Shown one piece after another: positions 49,704-51,531 of a stretch of 64,000 nucleotides of DNA. How positions within the stretch are numbered: the first letter of the stretch is position 1; every line of letters begins with the position of its first letter. The notes below the pieces were generated by a model, which did not search any database, was not told the DNA's origin, and saw nothing but the letters and a program-made list of their open reading frames with translations. The stretch comes from Shigella phage Z31. The position numbers and the translations under genes were made by a program. The stretch is taken from sequence record MN655999; one strand, 5' to 3'.

Positions 49704-49782
49704 TGGTACTCCATATCGGATTCGAACCGATACATAACACAGATTTTAAGTCTGGCCTCTCTGCCAATTGGAGTAATGGAGC
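49704..49782 (-). tRNA. tRNA-like, anticodon TAA (Leu-decoding), short variable arm, imperfect D and anticodon stems
   Basis: Acceptor GCTCCAT/ATGGAGT, T-arm ATCGGTTCGAATCCGAT, loop CTTAAAA. Confidence 0.4.
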
Positions 49783-49784
49783 AT

Positions 49785-49860
49785 TGGCGGGGGATGTTGG
49801 AATTGAACCAACTTCTTCGATTTCAAAGACCGAGGTTTTAACCTTGTAAACTAATCCCCT
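49785..49860 (-). tRNA. tRNA-Gln (anticodon TTG)
   Basis: D-arm GTTT/AAAC, anticodon arm TCGGT-CTTTGAA-ATCGA, T-arm GTTGGTTCAATTCCAAC. Confidence 0.6.
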
Positions 49861-49868
49861 TTAAATCT

Positions 49869-50426
49869 TTATTTTCTTAGTGGATGAATAAAGAATGCCA
49901 ACATAACTCTTTCCCTTGAGAATGCTCTTTCTTCTGGGACAACACTTTTAAGTTTCCATCCAACATAAATTCTCCAGTAGAATTGTTTACCAAAGATTTT
50001 AATTGATGGTACAAAAGCGAATAATCCCCAAGCATTACTGTTCCACATTAGGAGATAACCTATCTGATTATCTTTAGGGTTAGAACTTACGTTGATATTA
50101 CCTTTCCACTTAGTAACATCTTTTACATCTCTTCCTAACACATGGTAAGAGAAGTTATAAGCTTTGTTTCTCCAGAGCCAACCGACTCTCTGCATATAGA
50201 TACCAAGCTTACCAATCTTTCTAATCTTAGCCCATCGTTTGACATGACCTTCATCACCATCAATCGGGTTGTCATAAGTTTCCATCCATCTAAATCCGAA
50301 AGGTAAGTGTCCTTTCTTCTCACTGTAAAATGGAACTACAAAAGGTGCTAAGATAACTGCTAAGATTGCTGCAAATGGCTCTAACAAAGCTAAGAAAATC
50401 CATGAAACATATTTTAGATATCTCAT
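49869..50426 (-). CDS. membrane protein encoded inside the tRNA island, unknown function
   Basis: ORF track 185 aa; N-terminal TM segment WIFLALLEPFAAILAVILAPFVV; Trp-rich. Confidence 0.5.
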   Translation of the reverse strand: MRYLKYVSWIFLALLEPFAAILAVILAPFVVPFYSEKKGHLPFGFRWMETYDNPIDGDEGHVKRWAKIRKIGKLGIYMQRVGWLWRNKAYNFSYHVLGRDVKDVTKWKGNINVSSNPKDNQIGYLLMWNSNAWGLFAFVPSIKIFGKQFYWRIYVGWKLKSVVPEERAFSRERVMLAFFIHPLRK

Positions 50427-50665
50427 TGTCTAATCCTCGTAAGGAGGTAAGTGTTATTATTTGTTTCTGAGTTTTCTGGTAACATTGTCTCAAAATTGAC
50501 ACTTTTAAGTTGTCTTCCACCAAAGCAATGACCAATAAATTTTTCTACTTTTATTGGGTCGCACTCCCATCCAACTTTCAAGAAAATGTGGGTATCTATA
50601 GTGGGAACCCTTACAAACTCAATACTATTGGAATTTTCATGTTCAACGACGATTAATGTTTGCAT
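50423..50665 (-). CDS. hypothetical protein inside the tRNA island
   Basis: ORF track 80 aa; ATGA overlap with downstream gene. Confidence 0.4.
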   Translation of the reverse strand: MQTLIVVEHENSNSIEFVRVPTIDTHIFLKVGWECDPIKVEKFIGHCFGGRQLKSVNFETMLPENSETNNNTYLLTRIRQ

Positions 50666-50683
50666 AAATTCCTCTTACTTATC

Positions 50684-50759
50684 TGGCGCAGGATAAGGGA
50701 TTCGAACCCCTATTAACAGTTTCGTAGACTGTTGCTCTATCCATTTGAACTAATCCTGC
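50684..50759 (-). tRNA. tRNA-Arg (anticodon ACG)
   Basis: Acceptor GCAGGAT/ATCCTGC, anticodon arm ACAGT-CTACGAA-ACTGT, T-arm AGGGGTTCGAATCCCTT. Confidence 0.7.
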
Positions 50760-50857
50760 TTACCTACAAGAACACCATACAGTTTTTCACAATCTTTGTT
50801 TTTACGTCTGTTTAGGTATGACGCTCTAAACTTTTTTGCTATTGACTTATCACTCAT
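50750..50857 (-). CDS. mini-ORF (35 aa, basic) with strong Shine-Dalgarno inside tRNA island
   Basis: AGGAGAG-5nt-ATG; MSDKSIAKKFRASYLNRRKNKDCEKLYGVLVGKQD; 3' end overlaps the 5' end of tRNA-Arg(ACG) by ~10 nt. Confidence 0.25.
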   Translation of the reverse strand: MSDKSIAKKFRASYLNRRKNKDCEKLYGVLVGKQD

Positions 50858-50874
50858 AGTGCTCTCCTAAAATT

Positions 50875-50953
50875 GGTGTTCCAAGACGGATTCGAACCGT
50901 CACTAGTACAAGGTTTGAGCTTGCATCCTCTACCAATTGGGATACTGGAACAT
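50875..50953 (-). tRNA. tRNA with anticodon CAA (Leu-decoding) but class-I-like short variable arm
   Basis: Acceptor GTTCCAG/TTGGAAC, anticodon arm GCAAG-CTCAAAC-CTTGT, T-arm GACGGTTCGAATCCGTC, A73, CCA encoded. Confidence 0.5.
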
Positions 50954-51028
50954 GGTACTCACTAAAGGACTTGAACCTTTTTCTTCATCTTGTAAGGGTG
51001 ATGTTTTACCATATAAACTAAGCGAGTA
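50954..51028 (-). tRNA. tRNA-Val (anticodon TAC)
   Basis: Acceptor ACTCGCT/AGTGAGT, anticodon loop CTTACAA (one stem mismatch), T-arm AAAGGTTCAAGTCCTTT. Confidence 0.55.
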
Positions 51029-51123
51029 TGAAAGAGGTCTGAAGTTGTGCCGCTAACTCAACTCCGTGGAATTTGTTACGGTCTTCAGTTGACACCAGCG
51101 GTCTTTCACTTGACCTCTGAATT

Positions 51124-51200
51124 GGTGCTGCTCACAGGACTTGAACCCGCATCTCCATCCTTACAAGGGATGTGTAATAGCCAATTATACGAAAGCAGCA
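51124..51200 (-). tRNA. tRNA-Thr (anticodon TGT)
   Basis: Anticodon arm CATCC-CTTGTAA-GGATG, T-arm GCGGGTTCAAGTCCTGT. Confidence 0.65.
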
Positions 51201-51207
51201 TTAATTT

Positions 51208-51282
51208 GGAGCATCCAGAGGGAATCGAACCCTCAACCTCAGTTTGGAAGACTGTAATTTTCCCGTTTAAACTATGGATGCA
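51208..51282 (-). tRNA. tRNA-Gly (anticodon TCC)
   Basis: Acceptor GCATCCA/TGGATGC, loop CTTCCAA, T-arm GAGGGTTCGATTCCCTC. Confidence 0.65.
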
Positions 51283-51288
51283 CTAATT

Positions 51289-51364
51289 GGTGGAGTCACT
51301 GAGAATTGAACTCAGTTCCCAAGTTTGCAAAACTCGAATTTTAACCATATAAACTATGACCCCA
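51289..51364 (-). tRNA. tRNA-Ala (anticodon TGC)
   Basis: Acceptor GGGGTCA with G3-U70 pair, anticodon arm CGAGT-TTTGCAA-ACTTG, T-arm CTGAGTTCAATTCTCAG. Confidence 0.7.
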
Positions 51365-51370
51365 ATGTTT

Positions 51371-51446
51371 GGTACAGGTGGAGGGAATTGAACCCATCGT
51401 CTTACTGATTAAGAGTCAGCCGCATAACCATTTTGCTACACCTGCA
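51371..51446 (-). tRNA. tRNA-Lys (anticodon CTT)
   Basis: Anticodon arm GCTGA-CTCTTAA-TCAGT; T-stem weak (GGG/CCC core). Confidence 0.55.
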
Positions 51447-51453
51447 TTAATTT

Positions 51454-51531
51454 GGTAGGAGACAAGGGATTCGAACCCTCAAACACCAACTTCTAAGGAT
51501 GGTAGGTTTACCAATTACCGTCAATCTCCCA
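51454..51531 (-). tRNA. tRNA with anticodon TAG (Leu-decoding) but class-I-like short variable arm
   Basis: Acceptor GGGAGAT/GTCTCCT, anticodon arm CCATC-CTTAGAA-GTTGG (one U-U), T-arm GAGGGTTCGAATCCCTT, A73. Confidence 0.45.

Follow-up and report, generated by a model that had tools for sequence, protein, structure and literature searches.

Three short-armed tRNA-Leu genes in the tRNA array of Shigella phage Z31 are probably functional leucine tRNAs of a widespread class I type

Textbooks describe bacterial tRNA-Leu as a class II tRNA, that is, one with a long variable arm. Seryl-tRNA synthetase (SerRS) depends on the long variable arm, whereas leucyl-tRNA synthetase (LeuRS) does not use it. 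In a stretch of 64,000 nucleotides from Shigella phage Z31 (sequence record MN655999; the whole stretch is called the window here), three tRNA genes carry the leucine anticodons UAA, CAA and UAG together with a short variable loop. We consider it very probable that this trio encodes functional phage leucine tRNAs whose cloverleaf is of the compact class I form, unlike the class II tRNA-Leu of the host. Judging from sequence, the three belong to a widespread short-armed type of tRNA-Leu that occurs in many phage lineages and on some bacterial chromosomes.

The determinants described for E. coli LeuRS are A73, A15-U48, G18G19, A20a and the D/T-loop contacts; the anticodon and the long arm are both dispensable, and a truncated tRNA-Leu without both arms is still charged (PMC9976931). 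In Aquifex, deletion of the arm mainly reduces affinity, while deletion of U48 abolishes charging (PMC2377443). Arm-deleted or minimalist E. coli and Aquifex tRNA-Leu are thus charged if A73, U48 and the D/T-loop corner are intact (PMC9976931; PMC2377443), but these are laboratory constructs (with lower affinity in the Aquifex case), whereas the phage tRNAs are natural genes. A natural tRNA of class I shape is the animal mitochondrial tRNA-Leu(UUR), which takes its identity from A73 and A14 (PMC9976931). Its structure is reduced, it is served by a dedicated mitochondrial LeuRS, and the likeness to the phage genes noted here is one of shape. Among phages, T5 offers a comparison for the UAG gene of the window: the T5 tRNA-Leu(UAG) is also phage-encoded, has A73 and lies in a tRNA array next to tRNA-Ala, and according to the T5 record an anticodon-changed form works as an amber suppressor. 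Unlike the gene of the window, it is 85 nt long with a 13-nt variable arm, which makes it class II.

By its matches, the window can be assigned to a Felix O1-like phage (Felixounavirus, Ounavirinae). A 2.1-kb stretch matches 254 phage records with a best identity of 98.9%, nearly all of them Felix O1-like phages of Escherichia, Salmonella, Shigella and Citrobacter. A search of 5,426 complete E. coli genomes gave no match to the region. Most matching records label the trio tRNA-Leu; in a few the UAG gene is a tRNA-OTHER, one of these being flagged as a pseudogene. The Felix O1 genome paper gives all three as Leu, with Cove scores of 52.2, 46.2 and 57.9, and does not remark on their shape (PMC3185647). 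Our literature searches found short-armed bacterial or phage tRNA-Leu in passing remarks, never treated as a topic. On the 64-kb window, ARAGORN places 26 tRNA genes on the minus strand, the trio included:

48509 to 53855, minus strand: tRNA array of 26 genes (ARAGORN and Rfam)
49704 to 49782, minus strand: tRNA-Leu(UAA), class I shape, 79 nt (ARAGORN; Rfam 47.5 bits)
50874 to 50951, minus strand: tRNA-Leu(CAA), class I shape, 78 nt (ARAGORN; Rfam 46.1 bits)
51453 to 51530, minus strand: tRNA-Leu(UAG), class I shape, 78 nt (ARAGORN; Rfam 40.0 bits)

An earlier reading of the window, made from the letters alone (the sequence-only reading), had the same ends for the first gene; its ends for the second and third were off by 1-2 nt, position 50953 being the first base of the adjacent tRNA-Val. 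That reading had also reported three leucine anticodons (TAA, CAA, TAG), variable loops of 5-7 nt and A73. Automated folding (ARAGORN, Rfam) puts the same anticodons in place, and ARAGORN returns variable loops of 7, 6 and 5 nt with A73. Leu(UAA) has the variable loop GTTATGT, the D arm CTC-CAATTGGCAGA-GAG, the anticodon loop CTTAAAA and a mismatch, C27.U43. Leu(CAA), with the variable loop ACTAGT and the D arm TCC-CAATTGGTAGA-GGA, appears paralogous to the UAA gene. Leu(UAG) has the variable loop TGTTT, the anticodon loop CTTAGAA and an 18-nt D arm (ACGGTAATTGGTAAACCT); its stem defects are a U30.U40 mismatch and a D stem that is either shifted or contains C.C. Mismatches in the stems had likewise been noticed in the sequence-only reading. 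All three genes have A73 and encode their CCA end. On the general tRNA model of Rfam (RF00005) the trio, at 47.5, 46.1 and 40.0 bits, lies above the gathering score of 29 and among the lowest scorers of the array. Long variable arms are kept in Ser(GCU) and Ser(UGA) (93 and 90 nt) and in Tyr(GUA) (88 nt), and ARAGORN finds no long-arm tRNA-Leu among the 26 genes, which agrees with what had been claimed for this island from the sequence.

We then compared the trio, arm by arm, with the five Leu isoacceptors of E. coli K-12. Host and phage tRNAs have in common A73, U8, A14, A15 with U48, G18G19 and a TTCGAAT or TTCAAGT T loop, and U48 is the last base of the variable region in both. The tertiary core is complete in all three phage genes (A15/U48, U8/A14, G18G19, A at 20a and a T loop with U54/A58), and the discriminator is A73 in 3/3. 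As in the host, the D arm of the UAA and CAA genes is 17 nt long, with a 3-bp stem and the 11-nt AAYYGGYAGA segment; Leu(UAG) has one extra D-arm nucleotide, before A14. The sole systematic difference is the variable region, with 5-7 nt in the phage against 13-15 nt in the host, and with 7, 6 and 5 nt none of the three has a class II arm. The host genes with the same anticodons, leuZ (UAA), leuX (CAA) and leuW (UAG), share the above bases and the 20a-equivalent A, but are 85-87 nt long and form a stem-loop where the phage nucleotides are unpaired. Further differences are A9 in the phage UAA and CAA genes where the host has G9, the bases at positions 32, 37 and 38 of the anticodon loop, and the more AT-rich stems of the phage tRNAs.

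To score the bodies independently of the arm, a Leu-body covariance model was made from class II Leu tRNAs only, 53 sequences of E. coli, T5 and viral contigs with the arms cut out. The trio ranks as the top 3 of the 26 genes in the array, at 62.2 (UAG), 58.8 (UAA) and 57.3 bits (CAA), and class I Leu tRNAs of other phages reach up to 81 bits. A sequence profile from the same alignment, with the anticodon masked, was applied to 102 class I tRNAs with Leu anticodons and to 941 others. The median was 28.0 bits for the phage class I Leu-anticodon tRNAs and at most 11.2 for every other isotype (area under the curve 0.958). Within the array, UAG (34.1 bits) and UAA (24.5 bits) come first and second of 26 on this profile, and the CAA gene, in fourth place, appears borderline. 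For the Mooglevirus Sf14, published tRNAscan-SE isotype models put Leu first for each of its three Leu-anticodon tRNAs (PMC12482277). No non-Leu isotype outscores Leu for the body, either on our Leu-body model or in the published Sf14 scores.

The meaning of the codons was examined in the alpha subunit of the phage ribonucleotide reductase (RNR; 2467-4701, minus strand), aligned with 45 non-redundant homologues of at most 60% identity. The homologues have Leu in 85% of cases at TTA columns, 50% at TTG and 87% at CTA, compared with 57% at CTT, 67% at CTC and 63% at CTG, and the 21 codons of this alignment give no hint of a non-Leu meaning for TTA, TTG or CTA. These results bear on the two explanations left side by side by the sequence-only reading, namely bona fide phage tRNA-Leu of unusual shape and tRNAs whose charging identity differs from their anticodon. 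The LeuRS identity set, the top-3 ranking on the Leu-body model and the Leu meaning of the codons in RNR speak for the former. Under the latter, the trio would be charged with another amino acid, for example by the synthetases for Phe, Lys or Ile (PheRS, LysRS, IleRS), resulting in deliberate recoding or mistranslation of UUA, UUG and CUA. We regard this as exceedingly unlikely. The class I shape is indeed typical of non-Leu tRNAs and A73 is common to several other isotypes, but A73, U48 and the Leu-type D arm occur in all or most members of the short-armed class, and most other synthetases require anticodon bases that are absent from the trio (PMC9976931). The isotype scores of the Sf14 Leu(UAG) are close (Leu 67.4, Ile2 65.7, Lys 63.4; PMC12482277) and the CAA gene of the window is not clearly Leu-like once its anticodon is masked; still, Leu is the top isotype on the Leu-body model and in the Sf14 scores, and alignment with Leu in homologues is as good for TTA, TTG and CTA as for the other Leu codons. 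The codon-meaning and identity-element tests therefore led us to reject Phe, Lys and Ile as identities. A class of identity-switched or mistranslating tRNAs was discarded too, as no non-Leu isotype scores better and the codons mean Leu. With the trio most readily taken for working leucine tRNAs, nothing in the window points to codon reassignment.

Conservation of the three genes is high: Leu(UAA) is 100% identical in >200 Ounavirinae records, Leu(CAA) is 95-99% identical in about 245 records and Leu(UAG) is 100% conserved in about 70. When 132 distinct homologues were aligned to the model, 98.2% of the stem cells were paired and double-sided changes were found in 20/20 pairs, with far lower values in shuffled and slid controls; as this alignment is model-fitted and includes class II Leu and a few non-Leu tRNAs, its counts describe the broader Leu family. 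Between genera (Moogle, phiEa21-4), compensatory changes occur in the acceptor and T stems, while A73, U48 and the short loop are kept. Felixounaviruses have three versions of the Leu(UAG) anticodon stem on an otherwise unchanged gene: ccatc/gttgg in the window, tctcg/cgaga in phage momo and cctcg/cgagg in FM4b. The stems of momo and FM4b are fully complementary and that of the window retains the single U30.U40 mismatch. The 5-bp anticodon stem thus varies as a block, a concentration of change that is unusual for a tRNA.

These data also bear on the idea that one or more of the trio, chiefly Leu(UAG), are decaying, non-functional copies. This gene is the lowest of the three on the general tRNA model (40 bits), has the 18-nt D arm, the C.C or shifted stem and the U30.U40 mismatch, and carries the annotation tRNA-OTHER in DaR-2019b and in UAB_69, in the latter as a pseudogene. 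It is, however, the array's best match to the Leu-body models and is fully conserved in the records cited above. Its mismatch is common to the T5-like homologues even as the neighbouring pairs covary, and other Felixounaviruses have fully compensated anticodon stems. Decay is, in our judgment, very unlikely.

Several points weigh against taking the trio for working leucine tRNAs. Minimum free energy (MFE) folding does not return a cloverleaf for any of them (z-scores of -0.8 to -2.0), although we consider such folding uninformative for AT-rich unmodified tRNAs. Leu(UAG) has the non-standard D arm and the U.U mismatch, and some annotators call it a pseudogene. On the Leu-body model the next gene of the array, tRNA-Cys, follows at 54.0 bits, a margin of only 3 bits, and on the masked profile the CAA gene, at 15.5 bits, does not stand out from Cys (17.3) and Met (15.3). 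The codon-meaning test covers 21 codons of one protein only. Lastly, the AATTGGYAGA D-loop motif is not by itself Leu-specific: we tried it as a Leu signature and dropped it once it turned up, in the viral scan, in class I tRNAs with 4-bp D stems, among them those for Trp, Gln and Asn, and the D-arm evidence used here is the full D-arm geometry plus A73 and U48.

If the trio are leucine tRNAs, as we favour, they would be transcribed within the 26-gene array with their own CCA ends encoded and would be leucylated by LeuRS. The UAA gene would read UUA and UUG, the CAA gene UUG, and the UAG gene CUA and probably other CUN codons. An AT-rich phage that uses these codons far more than its host would be expected to gain in translation; leucylation, expression and this benefit are what we infer for the trio. 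The window has a G+C content of 39%, and in its 68 open reading frames (ORFs) the fractions of Leu codons are TTA 0.28, TTG 0.13, CTT 0.27, CTC 0.065, CTA 0.11 and CTG 0.15. The corresponding values for 58 genes in a 49-kb stretch of E. coli K-12 are TTA 0.105, TTG 0.105, CTT 0.114, CTC 0.129, CTA 0.026 and CTG 0.522, and CTG reaches 0.77 when only the ribosomal and elongation-factor genes are counted. Phage tRNAs are usually seen as readers for codons that are rare in the host, and the enrichment of TTA (2.7-fold) and CTA (4.2-fold) over the E. coli sample fits this view. A comparison of this kind had been suggested from the sequence; for the third codon named there, TTG, the fractions are 0.13 against 0.105.

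The comparison with T5, also suggested there, was informative in an unexpected way. In Tequintavirus, the slot next to tRNA-Ala holds the 85-nt class II gene in T5 (7625-7709) and a 77-nt class I gene in the congeners HASG4 and mar004NP2 (8997-9073; stretch coordinates). Because the two sequences differ throughout, this looks like a gene replacement and not a simple deletion of the arm. The class I Leu(UAG) of HASG4, mar004NP2 and the rV5-like phage EspYZU08 are about 84% identical to that of the window and have the same U30.U40 mismatch, A73 and 5-nt variable loop. HASG4 and mar004NP2 match its T arm and anticodon loop exactly, and EspYZU08 its anticodon loop. Their D arm is of the standard 17 nt, one nucleotide shorter than in the window, and the acceptor stem and the 29:41 pair show compensatory differences between the T5-like/rV5-like genes and the window gene. 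In Mooglevirus (Citrobacter phage Moogle, 4501-4577 of the compared stretch), the syntenic slot between Ser(UGA) and Lys(CUU) is occupied by an unrelated class I Leu(UAG); the window gene resembles the version of T5-like phages, unlike this occupant. tRNA genes appear to have been exchanged slot by slot between phage families.

The short-armed class was defined here by a Leu anticodon, a variable loop of 4-7 nt ending in U48, A73 and a Leu-type D arm, a definition that all three genes of the window fit. Short-armed Leu tRNAs, often with the same anticodon trio, were found in Aeromonas phage AhP_Mru1 (Demerecviridae) and Lactobacillus phage LpeD (Herelleviridae); they also occur in Moogle, phiEa21-4 and Pseudomonas phage PN09, as well as in the T5-like HASG4 and mar004NP2 and the rV5-like EspYZU08. 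A 74-nt actinobacterial class I Leu query gave matches in 348 cultured-phage records, of which 250 cover at least 80% of the query. Among the matches listed, most are annotated as tRNA-Leu, and the hosts include Mycobacterium, Erwinia, Streptomyces, Vibrio, Pseudomonas, Bacillus, Lactobacillus, Enterococcus and cyanobacteria. Viral contigs were then scanned twice; these scans are samples and no census, and all their figures hold among the matches listed. As the first scan used a Leu-like D-loop pattern, and is biased towards Leu-like D loops, we also took a subset of its loci picked through a non-Leu tRNA and carried out the second scan. The numbers of short-armed and long-armed tRNAs were as follows:

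Sample 1 (120 loci, Leu-like D-loop pattern): Leu 80 short and 71 long; Ser 2 and 78; Tyr 1 and 27
Loci of sample 1 picked through a non-Leu tRNA (43 loci): Leu 20 short and 18 long
Sample 2 (anchored on an unrelated D arm): Leu 13 short and 51 long; Ser 1 and 48; Tyr 5 and 24

The class I share of Leu tRNAs thus ranges from 20% to 53% in the two samples, compared with 2% of Ser, and falls from about 50% in the first scan to 20% in the second. With both samples pooled, A73 is present in 93/93 and U48 in 92/93 of the short-armed Leu tRNAs. In sample 1 both bases are found in 80/80 class I Leu tRNAs, against 53% (A73) and 37% (U48) of other class I tRNAs, and class II Leu is absent from 39 of the 46 class I-bearing loci. 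Short-loop tRNA-Tyr was seen in 6/57 cases (1/28 in the first sample and 5/29 in the second); these may come from archaeal or eukaryotic viruses, be ARAGORN miscalls or be genuine short-armed Tyr of bacterial type.

In bacterial genomes, a class I Leu-specific pattern returned Leu anticodons in 118 of 119 matching tRNAs among the matches listed. Many of these are single genes in Actinomycetota chromosomes (Mycolicibacterium, Nocardia, Corynebacterium, Streptomyces), and single chromosomal short-armed Leu genes (UAA, UAG, CAG, CAA) were also seen in Planctomycetota, Armatimonadota and Acidobacteriota. In several pairs of species the flanks are conserved, and these chromosomal genes look native, not phage-borne. 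The Actinomycetota tRNAs have an NCC-CAATTGGCAGA-GGN D arm as in the UAA and CAA genes of the window, with A73, U48 and the same architecture; they differ in being GC-rich and, for many, single chromosomal genes, whereas those of the window lie in an array. In M. tuberculosis, only three Leu tRNAs are described as long-armed (PMC7450476, PMC11541572), and a short-loop Leu(UAG) encoded by a mycobacterial tRNA cluster has been mentioned in passing (PMC6582537). To regard short-armed tRNA-Leu as exceptional in bacteria and phages, as the sequence-only reading did, was therefore too strong, since it is found in many phage families and in Actinomycetota chromosomes.

Frequent loss of the arm in Leu and its near absence in Ser match a LeuRS that does not use the arm and a SerRS that depends on it. 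The loss might further be an adaptation, by which Leu tRNAs escape arm-recognizing enzymes of the host or of competitors, or survive an attack, induced by the phage, on the class II tRNA-Leu of the host; leucine decoding by the phage would then continue when that of its host is damaged, which is compatible with a normal Leu acceptor role. Such an advantage would fit the class I share in the two viral samples (20-53% among the matches listed), the spread or repeated origin of class I Leu in unrelated phage families, the class II and class I genes in the same slot of one genus, and the 39/46 loci of sample 1 without class II Leu among the matches listed. It would also fit the fact that UAA, CAA and UAG together could read most Leu codons, and the difference between the phage anticodon loop CTTAGAA and the host TTTAGGT (also PMC12482277). 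The toxin MenT3 does anchor on the long variable arm of tRNA-Ser, but it prefers Ser over Leu (PMC11541572), and we identified no enzyme that targets the arm of bacterial tRNA-Leu. Moreover, class I Leu is native in many Actinomycetota chromosomes, where phage conflict is needless as an explanation, the Ser and Tyr tRNAs of the phage keep their arms, and the data fit neutral loss of a dispensable arm just as well. We consider the adaptive explanation unlikely. It would be a bolder step to see short-armed tRNA-Leu as a distinct, horizontally mobile lineage that phages favour since the missing arm hides Leu decoding from arm-recognizing toxins, nucleases or phage-made host shutoff. This too seems unlikely to us; if true, the UAA, CAA and UAG set would let the phage translate most Leu codons without host tRNA-Leu.

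Other features of the array were noted along with the trio. A 114-nt insert (50750-50873) separates tRNA-Arg(ACG) from tRNA-Leu(CAA), two genes with only 8 nt between them in the relative UAB_69. For most relatives the match to the query is split in two and covers 95%, and an unbroken match across the insert was seen in five of the records listed (four phages: P54, EC6, the 'SA1' record and LF110P4). The insert holds an ORF of 35 codons (MSDKSIAKKFRASYLNRRKNKDCEKLYGVLVGKQD) with an AGGAG-like site upstream, which ends 10 nt inside the tRNA-Arg gene. The 'SA1' record, GU169904.1 ('Staphylococcus phage SA1', 147 kb), contains this Felix O1-like tRNA region at 95.8% identity, which suggests a mixed or mislabelled assembly rather than a gene of a staphylococcal phage. 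Salmonella phage FG1m (5999-6076 of the compared stretch) carries a chimeric tRNA, with the 5' two-thirds from Leu(CAA) and the T arm and 3' acceptor strand from Leu(UAA). It apparently arose through a deletion by recombination of the two paralogues, with loss of the genes that separate them in the window, namely Arg, Gln and two ORFs.

Two tRNA-like stretches between called genes, 51894-51969 (minus strand) and 52872-52947, reach 15.5 and 13.3 bits with the Leu-body model; neither is called as a tRNA by ARAGORN or Rfam. In the first, GTGGGAC can pair with GTCCCAT much as in an acceptor stem, the loop CTCCAAA contains a Trp-like CCA anticodon, and there is a GCCA on the 3' side. It may be a degenerate tRNA-Trp; the phiEa21-4 array includes a Trp gene. 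Directly upstream of the array, 54021-55436 (minus strand) encodes a 471-aa protein with DUF2828 and DUF7788, called 'vWFA protein' or 'RNA-binding protein' in relatives. A search of solved structures gave no sequence match to it, and its position beside the array suggests a possible RNA-related role.

The anomaly of three leucine anticodons on class I bodies is largely explained, and the architecture is a known but scarcely documented variant. The trio is already in databases as tRNA-Leu, and what remains of interest is how frequent such tRNAs are in phages, and why. Annotation calls for some caution, as pipelines sometimes label short-armed Leu genes tRNA-OTHER or pseudogenes. Reviews still describe bacterial tRNA-Leu as class II, yet among the matches listed a fifth to half of phage Leu tRNAs are short-armed, Ser almost never is, and the short-armed form is native in many Actinomycetota. 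This raises the question of whether the arm was lost neutrally or as a liability during infection. The abundance of short-armed Leu may itself be taken as a natural confirmation that bacterial LeuRS ignores the arm.

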